Source of the DNA: an uncultured Desulfatiglans sp.
Lineage (GTDB): Bacteria > Desulfobacterota > DSM-4660 > Desulfatiglandales > Desulfatiglandaceae
Direction of reading: 5' to 3'
Assembly: GCA_900498135.1 (NCBI GenBank)
Contig: LR026961.1
Location: 836,373 to 868,372 of the forward strand
Length of the DNA stretch: 32,000 bases
Part shown: positions 1-16,781 of the stretch, in pieces
How the letters are laid out: each line of letters starts with the position of its first letter
Numbering within the stretch: the first letter of the stretch is position 1
The notes under the pieces: generated by a model
Databases searched by the model: none
The model's input: the letters and a program-made list of their open reading frames with translations, nothing else
Told to the model about the DNA's origin: nothing
Translations under genes and position numbers: made by a program

Positions 1-106
1 GGCCGAGATCCTTTGAAATGGGATCTTCGGCCCGGCGTCGAAACGCGGCGACGAGACCTTTTCCGGATGGACACCATTCAACCCTGGAGGAAGGAGGAGG
101 GACACC

Positions 107-1372
107 ATGAAATTTGAGTTTGTAGAGGAAAAAGAGCGGTATCAGGCCAAAATCAAGGTCATCGGCATCGGGGGCGCGGGTGGAAACGCCATCAACAACA
201 TGATCGCCGCGAAATTGAAGGGCGTCGACCTCATTGCAGCCAATACGGACTGCCAGGACCTCGACCGTTCATCCTGCCCATACCGCATTCAACTGGGCCC
301 TGAGACGACCAAAGGACTTGGCGCCGGCGCCGATCCGGAAATCGGAGCCGCCTCTGCGGAGGAAAGCATCAACGAGGTCAGGGAGGCCGTCGAAGGCGCT
401 GACATGGTGTTCATCACCGCAGGGATGGGGGGCGGAACCGGGACGGGCGCTGCGCCGATTGTTGCCCGGGAGTGCAAGGACACCAAAGCCCTCACGGTCG
501 CTGTGGTCTCGAAGCCTTTTGAATTCGAAGGGCGCAAACGTATGGCACGGGCCCTTGACGGGCTTGAAAGACTCAAGGGCGAGGTCGACAGCCTGATCGT
601 GATCCCGAATGAACGACTGAAGGCCCTCGGTGGTAAGAACGCCAGCTTCAAGGATCTGATCGTCAGGGCCGACGATGTCCTGCTGCAGGCCGTCCGCGGC
701 ATCTCCGACCTCATTATGAGCACCGGTTTCATCAACCTCGACTTCGCCGATGTCAAGAAGGTCATGGAGCAGAACGGCACGGCCATCATGGGCATGGGCC
801 GGGCGACCGGTGAAAACCGCGCCATCGAGGCCGCACAGATGGCTATCAACAGCCCCCTCCTCGAAGACTTGTCCATCCGCGGCGCAAGAGGGCTACTGAT
901 GAACATCACTGGCTCCTACGACATGACGCTGGACGAAATAGAAGAAGCCTCCAAGTACATCAAGGGTGAAGCTAACGACGACGCCGATATCTTTTTCGGC
1001 GTGGTTTACGACGAGAACTGCGGCGAGGAGGTTCACGTGACCGTCATCGCGACCGGCATCGACAGCGCACCGGCGGAAGAAGAGGCCCTGCCCAAGAGCG
1101 GGCCAACCACCTCCGGCAAAAGGGAATATGCGAATGTCGTCAAGATTCGGGATATCAGCCCCGAAGAGGCCGGCGAAACCTGGACAGTGCGACTGAATGG
1201 AGAAAGACTGGACCTCGACACGCCGACCTTTCAGCGGATCGGCAAATCCCTGCCGGACGAATCGGAGGACACCGTCCAGGACAGACAGAAAAAGAAGAAA
1301 GGGCTTTTCGGTAAACTGGGCTTCAGGGAGAACCTGGAAATCCCGACCTTTATGCGCGTCAAAGCCGATTGA
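107..1372 (+). CDS. ftsZ: Cell division GTPase FtsZ
   Basis: 421-aa ORF. It has the N-terminal IKVIGIGGAGGNAINNMI nucleotide-binding loop, the tubulin/FtsZ signature GGGTGTGAAP, and the conserved C-terminal peptide LEIPTFMRVKAD. A GGAGGAGG Shine-Dalgarno lies just upstream of the ATG. Confidence 0.97.
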   Translation: MKFEFVEEKERYQAKIKVIGIGGAGGNAINNMIAAKLKGVDLIAANTDCQDLDRSSCPYRIQLGPETTKGLGAGADPEIGAASAEESINEVREAVEGADMVFITAGMGGGTGTGAAPIVARECKDTKALTVAVVSKPFEFEGRKRMARALDGLERLKGEVDSLIVIPNERLKALGGKNASFKDLIVRADDVLLQAVRGISDLIMSTGFINLDFADVKKVMEQNGTAIMGMGRATGENRAIEAAQMAINSPLLEDLSIRGARGLLMNITGSYDMTLDEIEEASKYIKGEANDDADIFFGVVYDENCGEEVHVTVIATGIDSAPAEEEALPKSGPTTSGKREYANVVKIRDISPEEAGETWTVRLNGERLDLDTPTFQRIGKSLPDESEDTVQDRQKKKKGLFGKLGFRENLEIPTFMRVKAD

Positions 1373-1417
1373 TCCGGACCAGGGCCGATCAGAGATGCTC
1401 CGGAGAAGGAGACCGCC

Positions 1418-3172
1418 ATGGCGGACCAGTTGATTTCCCTTTACCGCCAAAAACTCGCAGGGGAAAAGGGCTGGATCCGAAAGGAGTGGGGAGGACGCTG
1501 CGCCATCGCTCTGGCCTTCCCCAATGCCTACCGCCTTGGCATGTCCAACCTCGGATTTCAATCGGTCTACGGGCTGATGAACCTGAGACCGGATGTGTTG
1601 GCGGAACGGGTCTTCCTGCCGGAGGACCCGGAGATCAGGCTTTACCGTCAAACAGGCAGACCGCTTCTTTCGCTCGAATCGCAATCACCGGTCAGGGACT
1701 TTCAGCTCCTGGCCTTCTCCCTCCCGTTCGAAAATGACTACCCGAATATTCTGAAGATCCTCGATCTAGCCAAGGTGCCATTGGCCGCCGAGGACCGGCT
1801 CGACACCGACCCTTTCGTGATGGCGGGAGGCGTCACCACCTTTCTCAACCCGGAACCGTTGGCGCACTTCATCGATTTCTTCCTCCTCGGGGAGGCCGAG
1901 GAGACCCTCCAACCCTTCCTGGACCTGTTCGTGGATCTGCTGCGCAAAGGAACGCCCCGTGGCGAAATCCTCAGGCGGCTCGCCGCCCAGGTGCCGTCCC
2001 TGTACGTCCCTTCTCTTTATGACGTGGCCTACGCCGAAGATGGGCGCATCGCATCATTCAGCCCAAAGCACGAAGCCTTCCCGTCTAAGATAGCCGTCGG
2101 CAGGCCCAGGCGCCTGACACCGCCCCCTGCCAGGTCCCGGATCTCGACAGCGGAAACCGAGTTCGGCGGGCGCCCCCTCGTTGAACTGGGCCGGGGCTGC
2201 GGGCGCTCCTGCCGCTTCTGCGCCGCAGGTTATGTCTATCGCCCGCCCCGCTGGCACACGCTCGAGGACCTCCGCACCTGTATCGACGGATTGCTCACAG
2301 AGCATGGGGAGATCGGCCTTTTAGCCCCGTGCGTCAATGACCTGCCCGAGATCGAGGCCCTTACAGCGCTCATTTTGGAGCGAGGCGGCTCGTTTTCCGC
2401 TTCTTCGCTGCGCGCCGATGCATTGACCCCCGTTCTACTGGCGCATCTCAAGGCTGCCGGCCGGAAAACCGTGACCATCGCTCCCGAAGCGGGCTCAGAG
2501 CGGCTTCGCCGGGTGATCAACAAGCATCTCTCGCGGCAGGCAATCCTCGACGCAGCGCGCTCGATCGCCGAAACCTCCGATTTTGCCTTGCGGCTCTACT
2601 TCCTGATCGGCCTGCCGACCGAAACCCAGGAAGACCTCTCCGAAATGGTACGCCTGGTCAAGGCCATCAAGCACCAGATGATCAAGGCCTCCGCGCCGCG
2701 GGGCACCCTGCGTCCGATCCGGCTGAGCATCAACTGCTTCGTCCCCAAACCATTCACACCCTTTCAATGGTTCAACCTCCAAGAGGTCCGTGAACTGAAG
2801 AAAAAACAGGCATGGCTGAAAAAGGCATTTGCACGCGAGGGGGGCGTGAAGGCGACGTTCGACGTGCCCCGCTGGGCCTACATCCAGGCGCTGCTGGCCC
2901 TGGGGGACCGACGGGTATCGCGTATTCTCATGGATGTGCATCTTTCGGACGGCAACTGGAAAAAGGCTTTGAAAGAATCGGAAATCAACCCGGACTTCTT
3001 CGTGTCGCGGGAGAAGGCCCTCGATGAGATTCTGCCCTGGGACTTCATCGACCACGGCATCAGGAAGGAGCACTTGCTCCGTGAGTACCGCCTGGCACTG
3101 GTGGAGGAGGAATCCGACATTTGCGAGGTCGGGAAATGCCGCCGCTGCGGCGTTTGCAGGCCGCCCGAATGA
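1418..3172 (+). CDS. Radical SAM protein with N-terminal B12-binding-like domain (TIGR03960-like uncharacterised family)
   Basis: 584-aa ORF with the CxxxCxxC cluster motif GRGCGRSCRFCAAG. The N-terminus (FPNAYRLGMSNLGFQSVYGLMN ... FSLPFENDYPNILKILDLAKVPL ... FLLGEAEE) matches my memory of that family. A GGAGAAGGAG ribosome-binding site precedes the ATG. Confidence 0.85.
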   Translation: MADQLISLYRQKLAGEKGWIRKEWGGRCAIALAFPNAYRLGMSNLGFQSVYGLMNLRPDVLAERVFLPEDPEIRLYRQTGRPLLSLESQSPVRDFQLLAFSLPFENDYPNILKILDLAKVPLAAEDRLDTDPFVMAGGVTTFLNPEPLAHFIDFFLLGEAEETLQPFLDLFVDLLRKGTPRGEILRRLAAQVPSLYVPSLYDVAYAEDGRIASFSPKHEAFPSKIAVGRPRRLTPPPARSRISTAETEFGGRPLVELGRGCGRSCRFCAAGYVYRPPRWHTLEDLRTCIDGLLTEHGEIGLLAPCVNDLPEIEALTALILERGGSFSASSLRADALTPVLLAHLKAAGRKTVTIAPEAGSERLRRVINKHLSRQAILDAARSIAETSDFALRLYFLIGLPTETQEDLSEMVRLVKAIKHQMIKASAPRGTLRPIRLSINCFVPKPFTPFQWFNLQEVRELKKKQAWLKKAFAREGGVKATFDVPRWAYIQALLALGDRRVSRILMDVHLSDGNWKKALKESEINPDFFVSREKALDEILPWDFIDHGIRKEHLLREYRLALVEEESDICEVGKCRRCGVCRPPE

Positions 3173-3217
3173 TTCCTGCGCGGACTCGGCCGCTGGCCGG
3201 GCCGGCAGGCCCGCGGA

Positions 3218-3760
3218 TCACTCATTGTGTGAAACGGTCTCGGCGTTCTCGATGCCTGCCGGCCCCAACGTCAGACGGATCACCAGATCCGTCTCCTGCA
3301 AGGACCTGCGAAGCATCCAGCCTTTCTTGATCTCGACGAGGGGGATCTCGAACAGACGAACGGTAGCCGATTCACCCAGACCCGCATAACCGGCCACCAA
3401 GCCAACGAAGCGCGAGCCCTCAGCTCGATCCAGGACAAAGGTGTAGTCCTGTCCCGGCCGAATGCCGAGTTCCTTGACGCAAACACCCCCCGGCGGCATC
3501 AGGACGCACTTCTTTAGGGTTTCGAGGCCGTGAGGTTCATCGGCATACCGCTCGAACGCCCCGGTCTCATTCAGTTGATGCACGCAAAGGCTGAGGAGGG
3601 CCTCACTGTCCCACGAAGGCGGGATTTCTTTGGCGGTCTTTACGTGTATGACGAGGGCATTCTTTCCGAAGTCGTAGCCTGGCGGCAACGGTGGCTGCCC
3701 AGCGCATCCCGCGGCCAAGATGATCCAGGCTGTCACAAGTCCAAACAGCGTCTTTTTCAT
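3218..3760 (-). CDS. Putative lipoprotein (weak TssJ/SciN-like resemblance)
   Basis: 180-aa ORF with a signal peptide and lipobox (MKKTLFGLVTAWIILAAGC) and a GGGAGAAGG ribosome-binding site. The mature part (LSLCVHQLNETGAFE ... IRPGQDYTF ... FVGLVAGYAGL) loosely follows the pattern of type VI secretion lipoprotein TssJ. No other T6SS genes are nearby. Confidence 0.6.
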   Translation of the reverse strand: MKKTLFGLVTAWIILAAGCAGQPPLPPGYDFGKNALVIHVKTAKEIPPSWDSEALLSLCVHQLNETGAFERYADEPHGLETLKKCVLMPPGGVCVKELGIRPGQDYTFVLDRAEGSRFVGLVAGYAGLGESATVRLFEIPLVEIKKGWMLRRSLQETDLVIRLTLGPAGIENAETVSHNE

Positions 3761-4073
3761 GACCTTCTCCCGCCTTCAGACTGGGACCAAGATGAACACC
3801 GGAAGCAAATCGCTCACCAGGAAACAAGAGGCCCTTTAGTCGGTGAGATCATCAGGACATACCCTACGACGGCTTCAGCAACCCTTCCAGAGACAAAGCA
3901 ATCCCCCGGGCCTTACTGCGTGACGCAAGTTCTTGAAGGATCAGGGGTTCGGATTTGCAGCGGCAAAGAAACCATCATTTCATCAATGAAATTAGCACCC
4001 ATATCGGCACAAGTCAACCGACCGTCGTTGGATCGCACCTGACGCATGGGATTCGCCATACGCCCAAGCAACT

Positions 4074-4883
4074 CTAGAGAAGAAATTTTTCCGGATCAGC
4101 CGCTATCTTTTGAAGAGATTTGCCTATTTCCTGCATGTGCAAACCGTGCCCTATCCGATGGTCCACCGTCACGCTAAACAAAGCGACCTGTTTTTCTCTC
4201 ACATGACCGTTTTCCAGAAAAAGATGTGGAACCGGTGAGTGTGCATGTATTCTAACGGGCACATTGCCAATCACCGGCTTAATGAAAATGAAAGTGGAAG
4301 GATTTTTAAACGTGTGATTTAAAAAGAAAATATTTGAAACCAGCCCCTTTTCAAACCCCATCTCAAACAACTTCTTCTCACCGATCAATCGAGTAAATCC
4401 CAATCTGATCATCATCCCCATGATCTGCACATTCAATTTTTTGGGTGGCGTTGAGAATTCTTTTGCCTTTGAGATCATCGTACGTTTCAGCTCTCGTTGA
4501 ATCGTCTCCAATGACTTCAACTGGCAGTTCTCCATGATTAAAGGGGCTAGGACCTCATTACTCCCCGGCAGCAAAAATCCATTCGCAATATGAACGCCTT
4601 CCTTCTGGTAAACCTTGTTCCCGAAAACTATTTGATTGGCAATTGGATTTTCAGAAATAACAATCGACAACATTTTATTGTATATTGCATGAAGACTGAT
4701 AGATTTTCCTGACTTTTTAAATTCATCTATCAGTTTATTAAAAGGATCAACATCAATCGGGTACATAATCGTCGCATAAGGATCCGGTGAATTATACAAC
4801 ATATTCATCATTATCATCCGGAAAATGCCGATTTCTTCCGATCTCAATCTTCGCATCTGCAGCGTTTTTTTCATGATAATCAT
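4074..4883 (-). CDS. Stand-alone 2-oxoacid dehydrogenase E2-type acyltransferase catalytic-domain protein (CAT-like fold)
   Basis: 269-aa ORF. The C-terminus VTVDHRIGHGLHMQEIGKSLQKIAADPEKFLL matches the DHRxxDG active-site region and C-terminal end of the E2 catalytic domain (Asp replaced by His). There is no lipoyl or E3-binding domain. The likely true start is the in-frame ATG at 4874 (MKKTLQ), about 10 nt downstream of a GAGGAG. The gene is strongly AT-rich compared with its neighbours. Confidence 0.6.
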   Translation of the reverse strand: MIIMKKTLQMRRLRSEEIGIFRMIMMNMLYNSPDPYATIMYPIDVDPFNKLIDEFKKSGKSISLHAIYNKMLSIVISENPIANQIVFGNKVYQKEGVHIANGFLLPGSNEVLAPLIMENCQLKSLETIQRELKRTMISKAKEFSTPPKKLNVQIMGMMIRLGFTRLIGEKKLFEMGFEKGLVSNIFFLNHTFKNPSTFIFIKPVIGNVPVRIHAHSPVPHLFLENGHVREKQVALFSVTVDHRIGHGLHMQEIGKSLQKIAADPEKFLL

Positions 4884-4923
4884 ACTCCTCAGAAAATCAC
4901 CAATGGATATACCCCATTACTGT

Positions 4924-5146
4924 CCATCCGGAAACACAATCCCGGCAGAACCCGGTTTCCAATCCGGAAATGAAGATTTTTCGTCTCACGGTGTGCGTGC
5001 TCGGTCCCACCCCTGCTGTGCGGATCCCGTTTTAACCAATACCCATTAAATCAAGCGTTTACAAGGCAACGACCAGGTGATCGCCGCACAAGCAAACGTG
5101 CAGATTGCCGCCGAGATTGGCCAAAAAACCCTTTCCGGATGGAAAC
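4924..5146 (+). repeat. Modular intergenic repeat, locus A (plus orientation)
   Basis: Contains three parts. First, the 5' boxes ccatccggaaa and ggtttccaatccggaaatg. Second, a GC-rich module (gctcggtcccacccctgctgtgcgg). Third, the core aatcaagcgttt...gcaaacgtgcagattgccgccgagattggccaaaaaaccctttccggatggaaac. It aligns by eye with loci B, C and D. Confidence 0.8.
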
Positions 5147-5629
5147 TGCATTTTCGCCAGAAAATGAAGCTCATCCAGAGTATTGAGGAGCCAATTCGTG
5201 GATCCTATACAAACGACGCGCCCTCCGCTTGATTTAAAAGGACAGGAAATCCATAAGATACAGATAACCCCTCCTTTCCTACATCCCGTTCCTAAACGAT
5301 ACCACCAGGATAAGAATCCACAGAAAAACACATACGCCGCTTCGGCGCCGTTGAGGGCCGGAAAGGGAACCCCCATTCCCGCTTTTCCTTGGGAAATAGT
5401 CCAGTGACAGGAAAAAGGGTCTCTGAAATGGCCGCAATGCACCTTGATTTAAACCTTTCAAGGCATATTTTATTTATTAGATGTCGGAAACCTTCGCAGT
5501 TCGCCAGGAGACAAGGGCCGGCTCTATACAGAAAGAGACCCGGGCCAAAGCCTGTTTTCGGCAGAGAGGCGGCTCCTGCTCCAATCGATCATTGGTTTCC
5601 ACCTGCAAAAGATGGCCCATGACGACCAC

Positions 5630-5884
5630 GTTTGCAATCCGGAAATGGTCTTTTTGGCCAATCTCGGCGGCAATCTGCACGTTTGCTTGTGCGCGACCAC
5701 CAGGTCGCCTCCGCGCAAACGCTTGATTTCCTTGATATTGGCCAAACCGGGACCCGCCGCGAAGCGGTGGGACTGAGCGCCCGAAGGGTGTAAAGGAACC
5801 GGGACCCGCAGGGGTAGGACTGCACACGCGCAGCGTGTAAAGAAAAATCCTCATTTCCGCATTGGAAACAGAGTCCTACCGCGA
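5630..5884 (-). repeat. Modular intergenic repeat, locus B (inverted orientation)
   Basis: The reverse complement reads ...gtttccaatgcggaaatgaggatttttctttacacgct..., then two GC-rich modules (cagtcctacccctgcgggtcccggtt and ctcagtcccaccgcttcgcggcgggtcccggtttggcc), then the core aatcaagcgtttgcgcggaggcgacctggtggtcgcgcacaagcaaacgtgcagattgccgccgagattggccaaaaagaccatttccggattgcaaac. Confidence 0.8.
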
Positions 5885-5910
5885 AATCATACGAATTAGA
5901 AAGGGATCTC

Positions 5911-6486
5911 ATGTTGAAAAAGATGGCGGTCGGCGCCTATCAGGCAAACTGCTACATCCTCGGATGTAAGAAAACGTTTCAAGGCGCAGTGATCGATCCA
6001 GGGGACGAGGTTTTCAGGATTACAAAAGAAATTTCGCAGAGCGGCCTGCAAATTACTGCGATTCTTCTGACCCACGGACATTTCGACCACACCGGAGGGG
6101 CAAAGGAGCTCAAAGAGATCACCGGCGCCCCCGTCCTGATCCACCCCGCGGACGCACCTGCGCTCGAATTCCCTCCTGACGGCCCGCTCCGTGAAGGTCA
6201 ACAGATAGGGGTGGGCACGTTCACGCTTTCCGTAATCCATACCCCCGGTCATTCACCGGGCGGGGTGTGTTTTCTGGCCCCCGGCGCCGTTTTCACCGGC
6301 GACACCCTTTTTGCGGGCTCCATCGGCCGCACCGACTTCCCCGGCGGGGATTACGCCGGCTTGATCCGTGGCGTCACCGAAAAAATCTTCCCCTTAGGGG
6401 ATGATCTGCGGGTGTATCCGGGCCACGGCCCCCAAACCACCATCGCCCAGGAAAAACGTTCCAACCCCTTTTTCAGAAGCGCATGA
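5911..6486 (+). CDS. MBL-fold metallo-hydrolase (hydroxyacylglutathione hydrolase/GloB-like)
   Basis: 191-aa ORF with the THGHFDHTGG (HxHxDH) metal-binding motif, a later HTPGHSPG, and a typical N-terminus (GAYQANCYILG). Confidence 0.85.
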   Translation: MLKKMAVGAYQANCYILGCKKTFQGAVIDPGDEVFRITKEISQSGLQITAILLTHGHFDHTGGAKELKEITGAPVLIHPADAPALEFPPDGPLREGQQIGVGTFTLSVIHTPGHSPGGVCFLAPGAVFTGDTLFAGSIGRTDFPGGDYAGLIRGVTEKIFPLGDDLRVYPGHGPQTTIAQEKRSNPFFRSA

Positions 6487-6566
6487 CAAAGACCACCCAC
6501 AGGGGGGAAGAGCCGACGGTTTCAGCACAGGACGCATACAGACAGGCCATCTTCCCGCCCAACGGA

Positions 6567-7496
6567 TCAGAGCGGGCGGGACAGGCCGTCGAAAGCCACG
6601 GTCACACGGGACGGCAGTCCATAGTCCGCCGTAATCCGGTCCACCACCTGCTGCCACTCGGCCTGGCAACGCGGAACAGGATAGGGATCCCCTCCGTTCG
6701 GGGCCCGAAGAGGGTCTTTCGGGGCAACTTTCTTGGCCATGTCGTTGGCCGGGTCACCCGGGACAAAATCCCCGTCACCGATGTGCACCAGGAAGGTCTC
6801 CCGCCGCGGGTTCAGAAGCCGAATGTAATCCAACGCCCTTTGGAGACTCATGTGATGGGGGCGATTGCGGATGGGTTCATGCAGCCAGAAAGACTGCATC
6901 ACCAGATAGTCCGGCTGCAGCAGTTCGGACGGCACATCCGGGAGCGTCATGAAATCGGAGGGATAGACCACACGCAGGGGCGGGCCGCCGGATTCCGGCA
7001 CCTCGATCAGGTACCCGACTGAACCCGCCGCGAACGCCCCATGCTCCGTCTTGAAGGGGAAAATGGCACAATCCGCCGCCCTTTCCCAGCATCCCGGCAC
7101 CACGATCACCGGCCGTATGACCTCCAAATCCACCAGATAGCCGAAACGCCGCGATATGATCTTCCAGGCGGGGGCCGTCATATAAACGGGAATGGACCGG
7201 TACCCCCCCTTCGGCACCGTTCGCTTGTAAGAAAACAGTTCATCGAGGCCTAGATAATGATCGCCGTGCTCATGGGTGATCAGGACGGCATCCAGACCGC
7301 CGATCTCATGGCGGGAAAGCTGTTCGGAGATATCCGGACCGCAATCGATCAGGAGACGTCTTTCTCCCTTCAGGAGCAGAGCGGTCCTTCCTCGCGATTC
7401 CCCCCTTCGCCGCATCTCCCGGCAAATGAAACAATCGCAGTTCAGCTCCGGCACCCTCCAGGCGCCCCCTGTCCCCAGAAAGAGCAGTTCCGTCAC
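6567..7496 (-). CDS. MBL-fold metallo-hydrolase, PhnP-like phosphodiesterase family
   Basis: 309-aa ORF. N-terminal LFLGTGGAWRVPELNCDCFICR (Cys-rich Zn site as in PhnP-type enzymes) and the ITHEHGDHYLG HxHxDH motif. It is the last gene of the minus-strand typA-rhomboid-MBL string. Confidence 0.8.
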   Translation of the reverse strand: MTELLFLGTGGAWRVPELNCDCFICREMRRRGESRGRTALLLKGERRLLIDCGPDISEQLSRHEIGGLDAVLITHEHGDHYLGLDELFSYKRTVPKGGYRSIPVYMTAPAWKIISRRFGYLVDLEVIRPVIVVPGCWERAADCAIFPFKTEHGAFAAGSVGYLIEVPESGGPPLRVVYPSDFMTLPDVPSELLQPDYLVMQSFWLHEPIRNRPHHMSLQRALDYIRLLNPRRETFLVHIGDGDFVPGDPANDMAKKVAPKDPLRAPNGGDPYPVPRCQAEWQQVVDRITADYGLPSRVTVAFDGLSRPL

Positions 7497-7589
7497 AGCC
7501 CCCTCCTCCCCGAAAAGGTTCTCTCCGGCAAATTAACAGGCACCCTGATATCTCCAGTCGCGAAAGAGGATTTGTCCCCGGGAGCGAAA

Positions 7590-8558
7590 TCACGCGATCT
7601 GAACCTTCAGAAAAAGATCGCCGCGGCGTTCGTCGTCGATTCTTTTCCCGAGTCCGGCAAGACGCAGATAGGTGCCGGCCTGCACACCCGCGGGGATCGT
7701 CACCCTGAACGGACGTTTTTGATAACCCCACGGGATGTTGACGATCTTGTGGGCCCCTTCTTCGGCCTCTCTCCCGGTAATGGTGATGGTCCCATAGAGA
7801 TGCGGCTCCTCTCCCGAACCGACGGGATGAATGACCTGCAAACGATGGCTGGTCTGCTTCGCGGTCTTGCGGCGCACCTCCTCGCTGAACCCCGTCGCTG
7901 GCAGGCGCTGAAAAATTTTCAACAGAATCATCCCGAAGACAAAACCGCCGATGTGCGCCCACCAGGCGATCCCCCCGCCGTGGGCTGGCGTCCCGGCGGC
8001 GCTGACGAACTGGATCAAAAACCAGATCCCCAGAAAGAAAAATGCCGGTATTTCAATGAAATAGGGAATAAAAAAAATCGGGATCACCGTCAGGATACGG
8101 GAGCCCGGGAACAGCAGAAAGTAGGCCCCCATCACCCCTGCTATCGCCCCGCTTGCACCGACGGTGGGAATCTGGGAATGGAAGTTGATGAACAAATGAC
8201 TCAGGCCCGAAGAAAGCCCGCAGAGCAGATAGAACAACAGATAACGGAACGGCCCCAGGTTGTCCTCTACGTTGTCCCCAAAAATATAGAGGAACCACAT
8301 GTTGCCAAGCAGATGCCAGAAACCGCCGTGAAGGAACATGAAGGAGAGGAAGGGCAGGGCCTGTTCAACGAAGGTGAAGTGGGCACTCACCTCCGGAATA
8401 GAATAGCGCGCCGGTACGAGCCCGTAGAGGAAGATGAAACGGTCGAGCCAGGGCCCCTGCGCCATCTGGACCAGGTACACCAATACATTGGCTGCGATCA
8501 GCAGGCTGTTGACAACCGGATAGGTCCTGGAACGGATGTTGTCCCTGATCGGTATCAT
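7590..8558 (-). CDS. Rhomboid-family intramembrane serine protease with C-terminal DnaJ-C-like domain
   Basis: 322-aa ORF. Rhomboid motifs present are HGGFWHLLGNMWFLYIFG, the catalytic GASGAIAG and the catalytic His in AHIGGFVFG. The roughly 85-aa cytoplasmic tail (LYGTITITGREAEEGAHKIVNIPWGYQKRPFRVTIPAGVQAGTYLRLAGLGKRIDDERRGDLFLKVQI) follows the DnaJ C-terminal domain pattern. Confidence 0.85.
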   Translation of the reverse strand: MIPIRDNIRSRTYPVVNSLLIAANVLVYLVQMAQGPWLDRFIFLYGLVPARYSIPEVSAHFTFVEQALPFLSFMFLHGGFWHLLGNMWFLYIFGDNVEDNLGPFRYLLFYLLCGLSSGLSHLFINFHSQIPTVGASGAIAGVMGAYFLLFPGSRILTVIPIFFIPYFIEIPAFFFLGIWFLIQFVSAAGTPAHGGGIAWWAHIGGFVFGMILLKIFQRLPATGFSEEVRRKTAKQTSHRLQVIHPVGSGEEPHLYGTITITGREAEEGAHKIVNIPWGYQKRPFRVTIPAGVQAGTYLRLAGLGKRIDDERRGDLFLKVQIA

Positions 8559-8706
8559 GCACTGCCTCCGGTTCCCATTGGAGCCTTCTTCCGGACGCGG
8601 TCCAACCCCGCCCTTTCAGGCACAGAGGGGTGCCTTTCTCCATGGATGGGAAACGCGACCCTGGATCCGCTCGCAGGTCGCCCCCGGGAAACGTGGGCCT
8701 CCGGCC

Positions 8707-10578
8707 TCAGGCGGCCCGGTTTTTTTTCTCCGCCGCCCGGACCAAATGCCGATCCTGGGCCGAAAGCATCCATTTCCGGAGGCGGATGGACTTGGGGGTC
8801 ACTTCGACCAATTCGTCATCCCGGATGAAATCGATCGCCCTTTCGAGAGGCATGGGAGTCGGCGGCGTCAGGATGATATTTTCGTCCTTGCCCGCCGCAC
8901 GCACATTGGAAAGCTTTTTCTCCTTGCACGGATTCACATTGATGTCGTTCTCGCGGTTGTGTTCCCCGATAATCATCCCCTCGTAAACCGCGACCCCAGG
9001 CGGAATGAAGAGGCGGCCGCGCGGCTCCAGGTTGAACAGGGCGTAAGCCACCGAAATGCCCTGACGGTCCGAGACGATAGAGCCGGTGAAACGGGTGGGG
9101 AAAACGCCGCGATAAGGACCGTATCCATCGAAATAGGCGTTCATGATGCCCGTCCCCCTCGTATCGGTCAGGAATTCATCCCGGTAACCGATCAGGGACC
9201 TCGAAGGGACGCTGAATTCCAGACGCGCGCGGCCATGACCGGCGTTGGCGAGATCCACCAGGTGCCCCTTCCGGATGTTCAGCTTTTCCGTCACGACGCC
9301 GATATACGCCTCGTCGCAGTCAATGAAAAGTCGCTCCAGGGGCTCGAGCCGCTGTCCCCCCTCCGTCTTGAAAATCACTTCCGGCCGCCCGACACAAAAC
9401 TCGAAGCCCTCTCTTCGCATGGTCTCGATCAGGATGGCCATCTGGAATTCCCCACGCCCCTTGACGATGAAGCTTTCCCTGTCTTCCGTCTCTTCCACCC
9501 GGATGGCGACGTTGCGCAGGGTTTCCTTGAGGAGGCGTTCGCGGATCTTGCTGGACTGCACGTACCGCCCCTCCCGGCCGGAGAAAGGAGAGGTGTTGAT
9601 GGTGAATTTCATGCTCACCGTCGGTTCGTCCACCCGGATGCGAGGCAGGACCCTCGGAGCCTCACGGGTGCAGATGGTGTCGCCGATCTTCACCTCTTCG
9701 ATCCCCGAGAGGACGATGATGTCTCCCGCCTCGGCCGACTCCGCCTCTTTGAAACCCATTCCCTGATAGGTCTGCAGGGTCACGACTTTGAGGGCCTTCT
9801 CCTTTCCGTCTTCGCCGATGCAGACCAGGCTCTCCTTCTGACGCACTACGCCGTGAACCACGCGGCCGACCGCCAGGCGCCCAAGATAATCCGAATAGCC
9901 GAGATCCGCAACGAGCATCTGGAAAGGCTGTCCGGCACCAGTGGCCGGTGCGGGGATCTCTTTCAGTATCGTGTCGAAGAGAATGTGCAGGTTCTCTGCC
10001 TGATCCTCCAGCCGCTCCTTGACCACGCCCTCCCGGCCGACTGCATACAGAAGGGGAAACTCCAACTGCTCCTCACTGGCCCCGAGGTCGATGAAGAGGT
10101 CGTAGATCTGATCCAGAACGGTCTTCGGCCGGGCATCCTTCCGGTCGATTTTGTTGATGACCACGATCACCTTGAGACCCGCCTCCAGGGTTTTCTTGAG
10201 CACAAACCGCGTCTGGGGAAGTGGTCCTTCGGAGGCGTCCACCAGCAGCAGCGCCCCGTCGGCCATCGAAAGGGCGCGCTCGACCTCCCCGCCGAAATCA
10301 GCATGGCCGGGGGTGTCGATGATGTTGACCTTGACACCCTTCCACTCGACGGAGCAGTTCTTGGCGGCGATGGTGATGCCGCGTTCCCGCTCGAGATCCA
10401 TCGTGTCCATCATCCGCTCGTCCAGGAGCTGCCCTTCGCGGAAGAGGCCGCTTTGCTTGAACATGGCATCCACCAGGGTCGTCTTGCCATGATCCACGTG
10501 GGCGATAATGGCGACATTGCGTATCCGTTCGTTTTTCAAGACCGTCCTCATCTCCCCGATGCTCAGCAACGGGGTCAT
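8707..10578 (-). CDS. typA: Translational GTPase TypA/BipA
   Basis: 623-aa ORF with G1 AHVDHGKTT, G3 DTPGHADFGGEV and G4 NKIDR. The length and domain order are typical of TypA/BipA. An alternative start is the Met 9 codons downstream (10551). An AT-rich promoter-like region lies upstream (10579-10650). Confidence 0.95.
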   Translation of the reverse strand: MTPLLSIGEMRTVLKNERIRNVAIIAHVDHGKTTLVDAMFKQSGLFREGQLLDERMMDTMDLERERGITIAAKNCSVEWKGVKVNIIDTPGHADFGGEVERALSMADGALLLVDASEGPLPQTRFVLKKTLEAGLKVIVVINKIDRKDARPKTVLDQIYDLFIDLGASEEQLEFPLLYAVGREGVVKERLEDQAENLHILFDTILKEIPAPATGAGQPFQMLVADLGYSDYLGRLAVGRVVHGVVRQKESLVCIGEDGKEKALKVVTLQTYQGMGFKEAESAEAGDIIVLSGIEEVKIGDTICTREAPRVLPRIRVDEPTVSMKFTINTSPFSGREGRYVQSSKIRERLLKETLRNVAIRVEETEDRESFIVKGRGEFQMAILIETMRREGFEFCVGRPEVIFKTEGGQRLEPLERLFIDCDEAYIGVVTEKLNIRKGHLVDLANAGHGRARLEFSVPSRSLIGYRDEFLTDTRGTGIMNAYFDGYGPYRGVFPTRFTGSIVSDRQGISVAYALFNLEPRGRLFIPPGVAVYEGMIIGEHNRENDINVNPCKEKKLSNVRAAGKDENIILTPPTPMPLERAIDFIRDDELVEVTPKSIRLRKWMLSAQDRHLVRAAEKKNRAA

Positions 10579-10894
10579 GCTGAAATTAAGATTAAATATT
10601 TCATTTTATTCTTTTTCGGAAGATTATCAATAAAAAAATCGGATTCCAGAGGCGCATCCAGACAGCACTCCAACCCCTGCACCAGACGGAACCCCAGGAC
10701 AGGCCCGGTCCATCCTGCCAACAGAGCCCAAAGAGCAAAACGGTCGCACATCCGCCTGTCAACGCCGCCCTGACGTCGTGCGCTTTTAACGCTTGATTCC
10801 CGGTGCGATAGGCGCTACCTTCGTTCCCATCTCTAAGCATCTATCGAGCCCAGGGGCCTCCTCGATCCGGATACAAGTTCCGTTCCTTCAGTAA

Positions 10895-11265
10895 GTTTCC
10901 ATCCGGAAATGATTTCCCGGTAGAACCCAGTTTCCAATCCGGAAATGAGGACTTTTCTTCACACGCTACGCCTACTCAGTCCCACCGCTTGGCGGCGGGT
11001 CCCGGTTTGGCCCATACTAAAGGAATCAAGCGTTTGCGCGGAGGCGACCTGCAGGTCGCCGCACAAGCAAACGTGCAGATTGACGCCGAGATTGGCCAAA
11101 AAGACCATTTCCAGCAAAACCCGGTTTCCAATCCGGAAATGAGGATTTTTGGCCAATCTCAAGGAAATCAAGCGTTTGCGCGGAGGCGACCTGCAGGTCG
11201 CCGCACAAGCAAACGTGCAGATTGACGCCGAGATTGGCCAAAAAGACCATTTCCGGATGGAAACC
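10895..11265 (+). repeat. Modular intergenic repeat, locus C (two tandem units)
   Basis: Two direct copies share an identical 89-nt stretch (11024-11112 and 11166-11254, 142-bp period). The second unit (11123-11265) is a compact nested palindrome. The first unit carries an extra GC-rich module (ctcagtcccaccgcttggcggcgggtcccggtttggcc). Confidence 0.9.
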
Positions 11266-11299
11266 AATAAACCTAATCGTCAAGAGGTGCGTCGAGGTC

Positions 11300-12214
11300 A
11301 TGATTACTCAGATCTACGAGATTCAAACCCCTGCAGAGGTAGAAGGTTGCCTCGCAGCAGGCGTCGATCACATCGGCACGGTCATCCTCTCGCAGGAGGA
11401 TTTCCAGGACCCCGTCCTGAGGGAAGTCACCCGCATCACCCGGGCGGCGGGCGCCAAAAGCAGCATCATTCCGCTGTTCGATCACGAAGAGTCCCTCCTG
11501 CGAACCATCGACTACTACCAGCCGGATTATCTCCATTTCTGCGAGGCCTTGGTAAGGCCCAGCTTGGAGATCGTTCCACTCGAACCCGTCATGGAGTTGC
11601 AGACACGCATCAAGGAATATGCGCCCCAGGTCGCGATCATCCGCTCCATCCCCGTTCCCCTGCCAGGGCGGTCCGGGGATTTTCCCACGCTCGAAATCGC
11701 GAGGGAACTGGAACCCTCCTCGGATCTCTTCCTGATCGACACCTGGCTCGGCCGTCAACCGGTCGAAGGGTTCATCGGCATCACGGGGCGGGTGCCGGAC
11801 TTGGAACTGTCGCGCTACCTCGTCTGGCAAAGCGCCATACCGGTCATCCTCGCTGGAGGACTCTCGCCCGAAAACGTGTATGACGCCGTCATGGGCGTAA
11901 GTCCGGCAGGCGCCGACAGCTGCACATGGACCAACGCGGCCGGCAAGGACGATAGACCTGTCCGGTTTCAAAAAGATATGGAAAAAGTCCAGCGGTTCGT
12001 CCAGGAAGTACGGAGGGCCGCCGACGCTTTGGCGCAGAGGAGATCTGCGATCGAGAATGAACTGGAACGCCTGAAGGAGGAGTTGGAGGAAAGGGAAAGG
12101 GCCCTGCCCGCCCATTCCGTAAGGCCCCATCAACTGCTCGCGATCGAGGCCGTCGAGGAAGAGATCGCGGCCAGAGAGCGCGAATTGCATGGACTGAGAT
12201 TCATCGACCTCTGA
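11300..12214 (+). CDS. Phosphoribosylanthranilate isomerase (TrpF)-like TIM-barrel protein with C-terminal coiled-coil extension
   Basis: I moved the start to the ATG at 11300 (MITQIYEIQTPAEVE...), which has GAGG ribosome-binding-site candidates upstream. The track start at 11222 lies inside the repeat. PRAI-like pattern: GVDHIGTVI ... FLIDTW ... PVILAGGLSPENVYDAV ... GADSCTWTN..GKDD. The last roughly 70 aa are charged heptad-like (ENELERLKEELEERERAL...). Confidence 0.6.
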   Translation: MITQIYEIQTPAEVEGCLAAGVDHIGTVILSQEDFQDPVLREVTRITRAAGAKSSIIPLFDHEESLLRTIDYYQPDYLHFCEALVRPSLEIVPLEPVMELQTRIKEYAPQVAIIRSIPVPLPGRSGDFPTLEIARELEPSSDLFLIDTWLGRQPVEGFIGITGRVPDLELSRYLVWQSAIPVILAGGLSPENVYDAVMGVSPAGADSCTWTNAAGKDDRPVRFQKDMEKVQRFVQEVRRAADALAQRRSAIENELERLKEELEERERALPAHSVRPHQLLAIEAVEEEIAARERELHGLRFIDL

Positions 12215-12243
12215 AAGGCCGAGGGCGATCCACGGATCTAAAC

Positions 12244-12331
12244 AGATCATATGAAACGGACTGGTCCTCCGTTTTGGATATCTTGGCTGGGGTGTATTTT
12301 ACACCCCGGACCAGCCCGTTTTATATGATCT
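12244..12331. terminator. Long imperfect inverted repeat between convergent genes (candidate bidirectional terminator or structured element)
   Basis: The arms are agatcatatgaaacgg+actggtcc (12244-12267) and ggaccag+cccgttttatatgatct (12308-12331). They pair with one G:T and one bulge. A central hairpin ggggtgt-atttt-acacccc sits between them. The right arm overlaps the stop codon of the CGGC gene. No classical U-tract. Confidence 0.4.
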
Positions 12332-12674
12332 AATGATAGTCGTGCGTCCCGAGCTTGACGGGGATGCCGGTCTTGCCCTCGATCGCCTCCGCCATCTCTT
12401 CGGCACTGGCATAGGGACAACCTGGCTTGGCATTGACCAGGCATGAACTCAAGTAGATTTCATCCGGCTTGATCTCCGAGAGCTTCATGGCCATTCCGAT
12501 ATTCGGGACGATTGTGCGGCCGGGGCACTCGCATTTGACGAATCCGACCACCTGCGATGGCTCATCGAATTTGCCTTCGCCCATCACGGCAGCTTTCAGG
12601 CAACGCCACTCCCCTGGACAGCCATAGCCACTGTCCATATAGGCTCCACACCCGACCACCATCACTTTCTTCAT
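12330..12674 (-). CDS. CGGC-domain-containing putative metal-binding protein
   Basis: 114-aa ORF with Cys-rich motifs VVGCGAYMDSGYGCPGEWRC and FVKCECPGR, typical of the CGGC domain family. A strong AGGAGG ribosome-binding site lies upstream. Confidence 0.7.
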   Translation of the reverse strand: MKKVMVVGCGAYMDSGYGCPGEWRCLKAAVMGEGKFDEPSQVVGFVKCECPGRTIVPNIGMAMKLSEIKPDEIYLSSCLVNAKPGCPYASAEEMAEAIEGKTGIPVKLGTHDYH

Positions 12675-13111
12675 CTTGAACCTCCTATCTGGTTATACTG
12701 TTTATGGAATCATTCGGACGGAAGGCTCCGCCCCGTATTCCCGTTTGGAGAGCGGGTCGACCCCGGAAAACCGTTCCGATTTTCCGCCGCCCGAGGAGAT
12801 AAATTACGCCCCCCTTATACGCCTTTACGGCCGCCATTGGAAGACCTGGAAAGCCGTTCACAAAGGCTCCAGCTAAAAAACCTCCGCAGCGGCGGAACTG
12901 CACCCTCATGCTCAGCATTCAGCCTGCGCCCTTGCACAAAGTGGATATCTTTTATACTATTCGATTCGAGGCGTTGGCTAAAAAATATCCACACCTTGTT
13001 TCGGCGTTGCTGGGAGGTCTTTTCATCGGCTCTCCGTCCGGGATTCTGAGGAGCGTCCATCCGGAATTGAGGAACGAGGGAAGAATCCTCTTCAGGCACG
13101 GCCGCTTCCAG

Positions 13112-13154
13112 GCGAAACACGTGTATCGCTGCCCGGGGAGGGTTTCGCTTTTTT
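13112..13154 (+). terminator. Weak rho-independent terminator-like hairpin plus T6 tract
   Basis: A gcgaaac (13112-13118) / gtttcgc (13142-13148) 7-bp stem is followed by tttttt (13149-13154). The 23-nt loop is large, so confidence is low. It lies in a gene-free region. Confidence 0.25.
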
Positions 13155-13228
13155 GTGATGTTTCAAACCATTGGCCTTGAATTTGCTTGTGTTTGCAGAC
13201 AGCCCGGGGCAGCGGCCCCCATACCGAA

Positions 13229-13441
13229 GACGCCGTGCGTGCTCAGTCCCACCGCTTCGAGGCGGGTCCCGGTTCCTCCGCGCCTTTCGGTGCTCACTCC
13301 CACCCCTGCAGGGTGGATTTCAATTTGGCCAAGCTTTAGGAAATCAAGCGTTTGCGCGGAGGCGACCTGGCGGCCGCCGAACAGGCAAACGTGAAGATTG
13401 ACGCCGATATTGACCAAAAATGACCCTTTCCGAATGGAAAC
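13229..13441 (+). repeat. Modular intergenic repeat, locus D
   Basis: Has two GC-rich modules (gctcagtcccaccgcttcgaggcgggtcccggtt and gctcactcccacccctgcagggtgg). These are followed by the core aatcaagcgtttgcgcggaggcgacctggcggccgccgaacaggcaaacgtgaagattgacgccgatattgaccaaaaatgaccctttccgaatggaaac. A related 5' box (tccatccggaattgaggaa) sits further upstream at 13056-13074. Confidence 0.8.
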
Positions 13442-13472
13442 CCATCCCATGAATACGGATTGAGGCTTCTGC

Positions 13473-15287
13473 ATGGCACTTCAACGGCCCAAAGGCGGGT
13501 TCTGGGCAGGCACGCCCCCCTGGATCATTCTCGGGGTCCTGGTGATTCTGGCCCCGCTCTTCGTCTTCTTGACCCTTCAGACCATCCAGCGGCGGAACGA
13601 ACTGACGACCGAGCTTCTCCTGGAAAAGGGGGAAGCCCTGATCCGTTCCTTCGAGGCAGGGGCACGCACCGGTATGATGGGGATGCAATGGGGTGGAATG
13701 CAGGTCCAGCGACTGCTCGTGGAAACCGCCCGGCAGTCCGATATCCACTACCTGATGGTCACGGACGAAACGGGGCGCATCCTGGCCCACAGCGATATCG
13801 CGCGGATCGGGGAAACGTACGGAGCCGGGTTGGGCCTTGCCGGGATCGCCGCCTCTGAGAAACTCAACTGGCGCCGCTTGAGCCCTCCCGGAGAGGATTC
13901 CCCCGTCTTCGAGGTATTCCGCCCCTTTTCTCCCACACGGTCGGCCAGAGGGCACTTCATGCGGCGCGGCCCCGGGGGGAACGGTCTGCGGCATCCGGAT
14001 GCCCCCTCCACCGACTGGTGCCGGCTGCACCTGGAAGGCGGCGACCCCGCTCCCGGAAGCCGCCAGATCGTCTTTGTCGGACTCGACATGGGCCCCATCG
14101 AAGCCGCCAGACAGGACGACCTGCGGCACACGGTCCTCACGGCCGGCATCCTTCTCCTCATCGGGTTGACGGCGATGTCCCTGCTCTTTCTCGCGCAGGC
14201 CTACCGATCCACCCGAACCGCGTTGTCGAGCGTTCAGGCCTTCACCGGGCACCTCATCGAGCGGATGCCCGTCGGTCTCATAGCGGTCGACCCCGACGGC
14301 CAATTCACCTCCTTCAATCAAACTGCCGGGCGTATGATCGGAGTTCAGATCCGTGACATGCTCGGCAAACCTGCCCGGGAGCATCTCCCGAAGGTGCTGC
14401 TCGACGTCGTCGACGCCGTCGCCGAAACGCATCAGCCGATGGAACTGGAGGTGGCGCTCCCCGCAGGACAAAACGGGCCCCTGCCCTGCGACGTGATGGG
14501 AACCCTGCTTCGAAGAGACGATGGCACCCCCTTCGGGGTCCTGATCATTCTCAGGGACCTCTCGGAAATCCAGCACCTCAAACGGGAGGTCGCCAGGAGC
14601 CAGCGCCTCGCATCCGTCGGCAAACTGGCGGCCGGGGTCGCCCATGAGATCCGGAATCCGCTCAGCTCCATCAAAGGGTTCGCCACCTGGTTCAAACAAA
14701 GGCACCACGACGATCCGGCGGACCGCAAGACCGCGGACATCATGATCCAGGAGGTCGACCGTCTGAACCGCGTGATTTCCCAACTGCTGGAATTCGCCCG
14801 CCCGCCGGCCCTGCATCGGGAGCCGACCGAGATCGGGGCCTTGGTGCTCCGCTCGCTCGAAACGGTGCGCGATCAGGCGGAAAGGCGACGAATCCGCATC
14901 GAAACGGACCTGGAACCGACGGACCGCCCCGTCAACATCGACCGTGACCGCATCAGGCAAGTGCTCCTGAATCTGTATCTGAACGCCATGGAGGCGATGG
15001 AGGAACAGGGGATGATGCGCGTCTCCGTCAAGCGCGAAGAGGCATCCGGGACCCTTGCCATCAGGATTGCCGACACCGGCAAGGGGATCGCGGAGCAGGA
15101 TCTGCAGAACATTTTCGATCCTTATTTCACGACCAAACCGTCCGGCACCGGCCTGGGATTGGCCATTGTGCACACCATTGTCGAGGCCCATGGGGGTGAA
15201 ACGCTGGTGCAAAGCAGCTTGGGGGCCGGGACCACCGTGACGGTACGTCTGCCTGCAGATGCGCACGAGAAAGGCTCGCCGGGCTGA
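13473..15287 (+). CDS. Membrane sensor histidine kinase (periplasmic sensor, PAS, HisKA, HATPase_c)
   Basis: 604-aa ORF with two TM segments flanking a sensor region and a PAS-like segment (LIERMPVGLIAVDPDGQFTSFNQ). H-box AAGVAHEIRNPLSSIKGF, N-box LLNLYLNAMEAM, G-boxes DTGKGI and GTGLGLAIV. Confidence 0.9.
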   Translation: MALQRPKGGFWAGTPPWIILGVLVILAPLFVFLTLQTIQRRNELTTELLLEKGEALIRSFEAGARTGMMGMQWGGMQVQRLLVETARQSDIHYLMVTDETGRILAHSDIARIGETYGAGLGLAGIAASEKLNWRRLSPPGEDSPVFEVFRPFSPTRSARGHFMRRGPGGNGLRHPDAPSTDWCRLHLEGGDPAPGSRQIVFVGLDMGPIEAARQDDLRHTVLTAGILLLIGLTAMSLLFLAQAYRSTRTALSSVQAFTGHLIERMPVGLIAVDPDGQFTSFNQTAGRMIGVQIRDMLGKPAREHLPKVLLDVVDAVAETHQPMELEVALPAGQNGPLPCDVMGTLLRRDDGTPFGVLIILRDLSEIQHLKREVARSQRLASVGKLAAGVAHEIRNPLSSIKGFATWFKQRHHDDPADRKTADIMIQEVDRLNRVISQLLEFARPPALHREPTEIGALVLRSLETVRDQAERRRIRIETDLEPTDRPVNIDRDRIRQVLLNLYLNAMEAMEEQGMMRVSVKREEASGTLAIRIADTGKGIAEQDLQNIFDPYFTTKPSGTGLGLAIVHTIVEAHGGETLVQSSLGAGTTVTVRLPADAHEKGSPG

Positions 15288-15404
15288 GTGCACGCAGCCG
15301 CCGGTCGATGCTCGACGGCCGAGCCGGCCGCCTGAACTCCGGCCGGAATACGCCGCCCGTGACAGCGGGGGCAGGACAAAGCCATCATCGAAAGGAGTCA
15401 TGGG

Positions 15405-16781
15405 GTGCAGCAGAAAGGGACCATCCTGATCGTCGACGATGATACGGCCCATCGGACGATGCTCTCGACATTGAGCGAAGGATGGGGATATACCGTCGTC
15501 GAAGCCGCCGACGGCGAGGAGGCCATCGCCAAGGCCCGTGAGCAGGCCTTCGATCTGATCCTGATGGATATCCGCATGCTCAAGGTCTCGGGCCTCGAGG
15601 CCCTGGGCGCCATCAAGGCGTTCAATCCCGCCATCCCCATCATCGTCATGACGGCCTACGCATCGGTCGAAACGGCCGTGAGCGCCCTGAAGCAGGGCGC
15701 GTACGATTATCTCACGAAGCCGCTCGATTTCGACGAACTGCAGCTGACCATGGAAAGGGCGATGGAGCATCTGCGCCTGAAGGAAGAAAACAAGCGGCTG
15801 AAGGAGACATTGGGTGAAACCTTCGATGCGCGGCGGATCATCGGCTCGAGCCCCGCGATGGTCAAATTGCTCCAGACGGTTGCGAGGGTCGCGCCTTCCG
15901 AGGCGACGGTCCTGATCAGCGGGGAATCCGGCACGGGAAAAGAACTCATTGCCGCCGCCATCCATTTCAACAGCCCCCGGAAGGACGGACCCTTCGTCAA
16001 GATGAACTGCGCAGCCCTGACCGAGACCCTCCTCGAATCGGAGTTGTTCGGTCATGAAAAGGGCGCCTTCACCGGCGCTCACCGCCTCAAGGAAGGGAAG
16101 TTCCGGCAGGCGCACGGCGGAAGCCTCTTTCTCGACGAGGTCGGCGAAATGCCCCTCTCCATGCAGGCGAAGCTCCTCCGGGTGCTGCAGGAAAGGGAGC
16201 TTGTCCGTGTAGGCGGCGAACAGGTGCTGAAGGTCGACGTCCGCGTCATCGCCGCCACCAATCGGGACCTGCCCGAGTCCGTCCGGGACGGCCGCTTCAG
16301 GGAAGACCTGTACTACCGGCTGAACGTGGTCGGGCTGGAGGTCCCTCCCCTGAGGGAAAGAAGGGAGGACATTCCCTTGCTGGCGGAGCATTTCCTGAAG
16401 CAATTTGCGGAAAAGAACCGCAAGACCCTCAAGGGATTGACCCCTCAGGCGATGGACCGGCTGCTCCGCTACCCTTGGCCGGGCAATGTGCGCGAACTGA
16501 TGAACGTCATCGAACGCGCGGTGGTTCTGGCACGCAGCGAGGTTCTGGATACCGAAGACCTCCTCCTGGAACGCGGGGCCGATCGTGTGGAAAACTCAGC
16601 CGGGCCGGCGGACACCATGGAGGTGGGGCCGGCGGACATTCCGCTTGAAGAAGTCGAACGGGTGACCATCCTGAAGACCCTTGAATCGGCGGGTGGAAAC
16701 AAGAGCGAAGCGGCCCGGCGCCTTGGAATCACCCGGCGGACACTGCATCAGAAACTGAAGAAATACGGGGTTATGCCGTAA
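15405..16781 (+). CDS. Sigma54-dependent response regulator (NtrC/AtoC/ZraR family)
   Basis: 458-aa ORF with a GTG start 7 nt after AAAGGAG. Receiver domain (ILIVDDD ... LILMDIRM). AAA+ sigma54-interaction domain (GESGTGKE, GAFTGA, DEVGEM). C-terminal Fis-type HTH (AARRLGITRRTLHQKLKKYG). Confidence 0.95.
   Translation: MQQKGTILIVDDDTAHRTMLSTLSEGWGYTVVEAADGEEAIAKAREQAFDLILMDIRMLKVSGLEALGAIKAFNPAIPIIVMTAYASVETAVSALKQGAYDYLTKPLDFDELQLTMERAMEHLRLKEENKRLKETLGETFDARRIIGSSPAMVKLLQTVARVAPSEATVLISGESGTGKELIAAAIHFNSPRKDGPFVKMNCAALTETLLESELFGHEKGAFTGAHRLKEGKFRQAHGGSLFLDEVGEMPLSMQAKLLRVLQERELVRVGGEQVLKVDVRVIAATNRDLPESVRDGRFREDLYYRLNVVGLEVPPLRERREDIPLLAEHFLKQFAEKNRKTLKGLTPQAMDRLLRYPWPGNVRELMNVIERAVVLARSEVLDTEDLLLERGADRVENSAGPADTMEVGPADIPLEEVERVTILKTLESAGGNKSEAARRLGITRRTLHQKLKKYGVMP

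Follow-up and report, generated by a model that had tools for sequence, protein, structure and literature searches.

Why does a short dyad, TTTCC-N4-GGAAA, stand a few dozen nucleotides upstream of the start codons of ftsZ and three other genes in a single stretch of chromosome? The question is raised by 32,000 nt of DNA from an uncultured Desulfatiglans sp. (hereafter the window: C1:836373-868372 of a 4.80-Mb, 57.7% GC chromosome, genome G000). A first-pass annotation of the window had held that the box always lies 31–46 nt before a start codon, and had offered three explanations: the operator of a dimeric regulator, preferential insertion near 5' regions, or a repeat end that supplies the transcription start or leader. 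The box, TTTCCGGATGGAAAC, is in all probability (about 0.88, judging from sequence comparisons) the terminal inverted repeat (TIR) of a non-autonomous transposon, a miniature inverted-repeat transposable element (MITE), and would be recognized by a transposase. That it lies close to start codons in the window reflects local clustering and is not a general rule.

Element copies in the window

The window holds 14 matches to the box at ≤3 mismatches, compared with 1.6 expected by chance. The boxes listed in the first-pass annotation are present at 60-74 (+), 4920-4934 (-), 11250-11264 (+), and 13427-13441 (+), and they are, as it had seen, the terminal part of a dispersed repeat: three copies of that repeat (4920-5146, 10895-11264, and 13053-13441) are each bounded by an inverted pair of boxes. 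The copies are listed here, with L-TIR and R-TIR denoting the first and last terminal repeats in the canonical order given in the next section.

60-74, + strand: solo R-type TIR box, TTTCCGGATGGACAC, with AGACC before it, 33 nt upstream of the ftsZ ATG
4920-5146, + strand: complete 227-bp MITE of the 228-bp class (nhmmer, model positions 2-228, E=1.3e-59)
5595-5892, - strand: inverted, degenerate MITE copy (nhmmer, 5635-5798 and 5797-5890, without model positions 1-14)
10889-11270 including the target duplication, + strand: 370-bp MITE (10895-11264) of the 228-bp class with a 142-bp internal tandem duplication (nhmmer)
13053-13441, + strand: degenerate composite copy with an L-TIR-like box (3 mismatches) at 13053-13067 (nhmmer)

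The complete copy is made up of an L-TIR (4920-4934), a subterminal box of the N5 form (4956-4970), a 52-nt GC hairpin module, a core palindrome of about 107 nt, and an R-TIR (5132-5146). The 370-bp copy runs from an L-TIR at 10895-10909 to an R-TIR at 11250-11264 and is flanked by CAGTAA (10889-10894) and CAATAA (11265-11270), a 6-bp target duplication; its internal tandem duplication (11006-11112 and 11148-11254) is not shared by the congener, the second genome of the same genus (G001). In the composite copy the element-homologous body occupies 13230-13441 and ends in the R-TIR at 13427-13441, and the congener has about 100 additional element bases there. The inverted copy retains a degenerate R-TIR (5595-5609) and has lost its terminal L-TIR, and it is built differently in the congener. 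Its sequence reaches about 5890-5892, some 20 nt from the ATG of a metallo-beta-lactamase-fold gene, and the box at 5853-5869, previously counted as terminal, is instead the internal, subterminal N5 box of this end-truncated copy. The internal N5 boxes reported earlier were recovered at 4956-4970, 10931-10945, and 11125-11139. Past position 13441 both the box scan and nhmmer found zero elements, in agreement with the earlier reading. With the hexamer gene caller, no gene scoring ≥15 was found inside the window's MITE copies, and Rfam gave zero family matches in the window.

The solo box upstream of ftsZ is probably the relic of an old copy, although nhmmer detected no element body there. Another box, degenerate and inverted (CTTGCGATCCGGAAA, 11/15), is found 141 nt upstream of it, a length that matches the 140-bp class of elements described below, and the pair spans window positions -66 to 74 (C1:836307-836446). 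When this region was compared with the consensus as a degenerate 140-class copy, its interior similarity was not significant (21/300 shuffles score equally).

Measured from the end of the box, the distance to the start codon is 33 nt for ftsZ (ATG 107), 36 nt for a PRAI-like gene (ATG 11300), 32 nt for a histidine kinase gene (ATG 13473), and 46 or 37 nt for an acyltransferase gene, depending on whether it starts at 4874 or 4883. The former start is the likelier because GAGGAG lies 10 nt upstream of it, and only 1 nt upstream of the latter. That the box always has such a position does not hold even inside the window, because three further terminal boxes had gone unlisted: in front of 5132-5146 lies a non-coding stretch of about 450 bp, the typA start is 317 nt away from 10895-10909, and 379 nt separate 13053-13067 from the start that follows it.

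The family across the genome

Over the whole chromosome, exact copies of TTTCCGGATGGAAAC number 159, and the count rises to 390 at ≤1 mismatch and to 595 at ≤2 mismatches; the last figure becomes 593 once the duplicated end of the assembly is removed, and this set was used in what follows. The first and last 9,811 bases (C1:1-9811 and C1:4791295-4801105) are 99.87% identical and represent an assembly overlap of the circular chromosome, so that features inside the overlap are counted twice if it is left in place.

Adjacent boxes form 150 pairs in the inverted '-+' arrangement, 137 of them spaced 120–300 bp, and the pairs fall into sharp size classes of 176 bp (n = 62, 95% mean column identity), 228 bp (n = 16), 140 bp (n = 8), 192 bp, and 280 bp. 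The canonical order is L-TIR GTTTCCATCCGGAAAT, a spacer of about 20 nt, a subterminal box TTTCCAATCCGGAAA that resembles the TIR, hairpin modules, a palindrome, and R-TIR ATTTCCGGATGGAAAC; the subterminal box is the N5 form, with one additional base relative to the TIR. The body is modular, combining zero to two 52-nt GC hairpin modules with a long palindrome of about 107 nt, and a 148-nt stretch with a 143-nt unit folds into a single rod (-87.6 kcal/mol, z = -11.5), a fold typical of MITEs. According to a profile search, element-derived DNA amounts to 88 kb, or 1.84% of the genome.

Perfect direct repeats of 6–8 bp (e.g., TGGCTA, TAATCA, TAATTG, GAATTC, TAGATA) surround about one third of the complete copies, and the composition of the flanks yields a palindromic target, C|TARYTA|G, with TARYTA on both sides. 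Of 18 genomes sampled from the same bacterial family (one per genus), 12 contain a 140-nt core of the MITE, as does one genome from another family of the order. We found no description of this MITE family in the literature.

Mobility and a resident insertion sequence

At C1:1113644-1113819 the genome reads GAATTC, 176 bp of element, GAATTC, while the congener has one GAATTC in collinear flanks without the element. This empty site indicates that the family has been active on the timescale of species divergence.

The same 16-nt TIR bounds three copies of a 1,693–1,698-bp insertion sequence (IS) that share 92–95% mutual identity and carry near one end a subterminal box, TTTCCAATC, similar to that of the MITE. 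A 455-amino-acid transposase open reading frame (ORF) is intact in two of the three copies and interrupted in the third. Against the NCBIfam model NF033593 ("ISNCY family transposase", cutoff 325) the transposase reaches 445.8 bits, and it has the Pfam domains DDE_Tnp_1 and DUF772; one IS copy (L003) is flanked by a perfect TAAATA duplication. The transposase family is very large, with thousands of homologues in Deltaproteobacteria metagenomes, and goes by the name ISNCY at NCBI and IS5 at JGI. A scan of genome contigs for the transposase returned a single 22-residue match, in a Desulfatiglandaceae metagenome-assembled genome, and was uninformative.

The TIR box is thus most likely the binding site for the transposase. 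In the mechanism that we propose, the ISNCY-family DDE transposase from the resident 1.7-kb IS would move the MITE in trans and insert it into the TA-rich palindromic target, with 6 bp being duplicated. At the level of sequence, the features that define a MITE are all present: short non-coding units, TIRs, a target duplication of fixed length, multiple copies, an empty site, and an autonomous partner.

The interrupted IS copy lies within a 6.6-kb stretch (L032 6257-12868; C1:2154756-2161367), in place of which the syntenic site of the congener has 367 bp. A MITE stands at the right border of the stretch, which is possibly a strain-specific island.

Distance from element ends to start codons

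Distances were measured against 3,887 genes called with a hexamer model and dynamic programming, a gene set that agrees with Pfam on the window. The gene starts look genuine, since most box-to-start spacers hold good Shine-Dalgarno motifs. A start is faced without another box between by 298 of the 593 boxes, and the distances range from 10 to >1000 nt, which is incompatible with fixed spacing as a property of the family. Only 25 of the 298 (8%) lie at 30–47 nt and 67 at ≤60 nt; about 78% are farther than 60 nt, most of them >100 nt. Expected counts were obtained by placing each element block uniformly inside its own intergenic region. On this basis the first 10 nt before starts are depleted (0 ends observed, 8.4 expected), and what is left of the earlier claim is a real but modest, roughly threefold excess of ends at 25–35 nt, without a fixed 31–46-nt rule. 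The offset between the element end and the Shine-Dalgarno motif is likewise broad, from 0 to >60 nt, with a mild hump 12–20 nt upstream of the motif.

The window is the sole spot in the genome with at least three ends of the 30–47-nt class within 14 kb. For at least four ends at 30–47 nt from a start within 14 kb, a range chosen post hoc, the permutation p is 0.008; the same clustering test at ≤60 nt gives p = 0.27. These permutation results imply that the first-pass annotation had come upon the point where local clustering is most extreme in a broad distribution.

Insertion preference and selection together offer an account of why element ends lie near starts at all. Non-coding DNA contains the TARYTA target about 10 times as often as coding DNA does. 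GC-rich coding sequence would offer few TA-rich targets, and selection would purge copies that landed in a gene or a ribosome-binding site; elements would hence accumulate in intergenic DNA, and an element end would often be the nearest feature upstream of a start codon. We infer that start proximity comes from insertion bias plus selection rather than from any regulatory function that the box might have. Preferential insertion near 5' regions, as the first-pass annotation had suggested, draws weak support from the 25–35-nt excess and from the greater frequency of the TA-rich target in non-coding DNA. Counts of TARYTA and TANNTA upstream of starts show no clear peak, and a target-site matrix gives a 1.2-fold bump at 22–31 nt with a trough at 7–16 nt. 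The matrix accounts for the start-side excess in part only: the direction is right and the size too small. The remainder may reflect a preference for promoter-proximal DNA or the retention of co-opted copies.

Stop-facing ends pile up at stop codons, with 26 within 5 nt compared with 3.9 expected. Because TAG or TAA is contained both in C|TARYTA|G and in the junction, TA|G, that the target forms with the first base of the element, this pile-up may be partly an artefact of ORF calling. Targeting of stop codons in short operon spacers was considered as the source of the start-side peak and rejected; among 52 start-proximal ends, no more than 3 are accompanied by a stop at ≤5 nt on the opposite side. 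In the congener, a MITE directly adjoins the stop codon of the gene that occupies window positions 12330-12674. The spacer that precedes this gene, between it and the PRAI-like gene, is 84 bp in the window (12246-12329) and about 570 bp, including a MITE copy, in the corresponding stretch of the congener (L011 ~12490-13058).

Conservation of the boxes in relatives

The congener is collinear with the window at 92–95% identity and retains all of its insertions. Outside the genus, the 18 relatives examined have shorter ftsA-ftsZ spacers that lack the box, with the ribosome-binding site alone conserved, so that among the relatives searched the ftsZ box is confined to this genome and the congener. 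Even in the congener the dyad of that box is broken (TTTCC to TTTAC), and the boxes of the PRAI-like and kinase genes are altered as well.

Over the syntenic 17 kb, identity to the congener is 96.8% in the box-to-ATG spacers and 92.6% in the boxes, and 88.2% at third codon positions, 86.8% in element bodies, and 86.1% in other intergenic DNA. The 96.8% of the spacers compared with the 92.6% of the boxes argues that the constrained sequence is the spacer and not the box, and boxes near starts are conserved no better than the others (p = 0.44).

Alternative explanations

Some results weigh against the MITE reading. The excess at 25–35 nt amounts to 26 ends observed and 8.5 expected under uniform placement, most of which stays unexplained because the target matrix predicts only the bump of about 1.2-fold; the gene starts behind these counts come from our own gene caller and not from a curated annotation. 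Between the two species the boxes have changed slightly less than neutral sites, with 12 changes in 150 positions compared with about 13% expected (p of about 0.04, a weak effect). The spacers of the PRAI-like and kinase genes are too short for a promoter plus leader, which means that transcription of these genes starts in or upstream of the element, and such short spacers may leave room for a co-opted role. On the side of mobility, a clean direct duplication is missing from two of the three IS copies, and trans-mobilization of the MITE by the 455-amino-acid ISNCY transposase is inferred from shared sequence features.

One alternative is that selection has kept MITE ends 10–60 nt upstream of genes, where they would act as an outward promoter, provide the transcription start, or form a structured 5' leader, as the ends of Correia elements and of some IS are known to do. 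The excess at 25–35 nt, the 32–36-nt spacers before the PRAI-like and kinase genes, which cannot hold a whole promoter, and the retention of every window insertion in a congener of 92–95% identity are all consistent with it. So is the share of R-type ends beside genes (72%, compared with a baseline of 60%), except that the same bias is found beside stop codons. Near starts the R:L ratio is 33:13, compared with 244:166 at baseline (p = 0.10), and because R-type ends are slightly over-represented beside starts and stops alike, an end-specific role at starts is not indicated. A scan confined to the sigma-70 consensus found no outward promoter at any of the window's element ends, and inspection by eye found neither a sigma-70-like promoter in the consensus nor a sigma-54-like match. 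The gene typA has a promoter-like site of its own between element and gene, about 78% of the ends that face a start are farther than 60 nt from it, and the boxes near starts show no better conservation. We consider co-option of this kind unlikely. Slightly more doubtful still is its extension to the roughly 50–70 genes with an end 10–60 nt upstream, for which the MITE end would serve as the transcription start or as a long structured 5' leader; these genes would then share a control module delivered by a transposon, and the threefold excess would be explained.

A MITE that actively homes to a feature of the 5' region, for instance a ribosome-binding site or a transcription bubble, would also produce the modest 25–35-nt excess and the mild hump upstream of Shine-Dalgarno motifs, and would fit the over-representation of divergent intergenic regions among the hosts (36%, compared with 16.5%). 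A homing MITE should have a near-fixed offset and a fixed orientation. The observed offsets are broad, lacking base-pair precision with respect to either starts (10 to >1000 nt) or Shine-Dalgarno motifs (0 to >60 nt), there is no strict orientation rule, and the excess at stop codons is as strong or stronger, so that we regard homing as improbable, somewhat more so than co-option. Least credible by far is an operator bound by a dimeric transcription factor, whose regulon would include ftsZ, the PRAI-like gene, and the kinase. The dyad form of the box suggests it, as do the four copies that stand 32–46 nt before starts within a single stretch of 13 kb. The genome has no second cluster of this kind, and the permutation value is the one given above, with its post hoc range. 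But that cluster is not unusual at ≤60 nt, and some 600 copies of the box sit at the ends of mobile elements in both orientations. Against the operator there are also the lack of additional conservation near starts, the mutated dyad in the congener, and the absence of the ftsZ box from the 18 relatives outside the genus, and we regard this first of the explanations proposed earlier as very unlikely.

Comparison with known elements

Bacterial MITEs moved in trans by a resident IS include RUP, mobilized by IS630-Spn1, in Streptococcus pneumoniae, Nezha in cyanobacteria, and Chunjie in Geobacter uraniireducens. The present family resembles them in its size (140–280 bp), non-coding sequence, TIRs shared exactly with a full-length IS of the same genome, target duplication of fixed length, hundreds of mostly intergenic copies, long palindrome, and insertion polymorphism between close relatives. 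Unlike RUP, Nezha, and Chunjie, it has the TTTCCGGATGGAAAC TIR, a 6-bp TARYTA target, optional 52-nt hairpin modules, an ISNCY-type partner, and a Desulfobacterota host. The partner itself is like other ISNCY-family IS (NF033593) in its 1.7-kb length, single 455-amino-acid DDE transposase above the cutoff, TIRs, and 6-bp duplication. To judge from its size and its 6-bp duplication, it may belong to the ISDol1 group, whose members measure 1.6–1.9 kb and have 6–7-bp duplications.

Correia repeats (CREE/NEMIS) of Neisseria and ERIC/IRU of enterobacteria are, like this family, abundant intergenic palindromic repeats, and they often lie near gene starts and are co-transcribed with their neighbors. 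The ends of Correia repeats have documented promoter elements and an IHF site, and these repeats duplicate TA. The family described here differs in that we found no outward promoter consensus, in its 6-bp duplication, and in the presence of an autonomous IS partner. Its sequence features are those of a bacterial MITE of the classical kind, whose IS partner resides in the same genome.

For annotation, the result is that about 1.8% of the chromosome belongs to one MITE family with an identifiable ISNCY-type parent, and dyad "motifs" upstream of genes in this genome should accordingly not be read as operators. As the family is common to many genera of the bacterial family, it can also be used as a marker of recent genome change. 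Insertion at stop codons and the pile-up 25–35 nt upstream of starts may inform work on target choice by ISNCY-type transposases, and neither pattern is surprising for a TA-rich palindromic target in a GC-rich genome.

Neighboring genes and other observations

The genes next to the element copies, and the gene that follows the kinase, are as follows.

107-1372, + strand: ftsZ, downstream neighbor of the solo box, with orthologues in 20/20 relatives searched
4074-4874, - strand: AT-rich gene with a 2-oxoacid dehydrogenase acyltransferase domain (Pfam)
5911-6486, + strand: metallo-beta-lactamase-fold gene (Pfam)
11300-12214, + strand: PRAI (TrpF)-like gene (weak PF00697 match)
13473-15287, + strand: PAS/HisKA/HATPase sensor histidine kinase (Pfam)
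15405-16781, after the kinase gene: sigma-54 activator (Pfam)

A shadow ORF at 13344-16391 on the - strand, chosen by a codon-usage caller, was rejected, as the hexamer caller and Pfam place the real kinase and regulator genes there. Between the two facing MITE copies, positions 5147-5594 form about 450 bp of seemingly non-coding DNA that is some 85–90% conserved in the congener; the sole ORF called in it is weak (67 amino acids, score 5.6). Farther along, at 7590-8558 on the - strand, the window encodes a rhomboid protease with a C-terminal DnaJ_C-like domain (Pfam E=4.6e-6).

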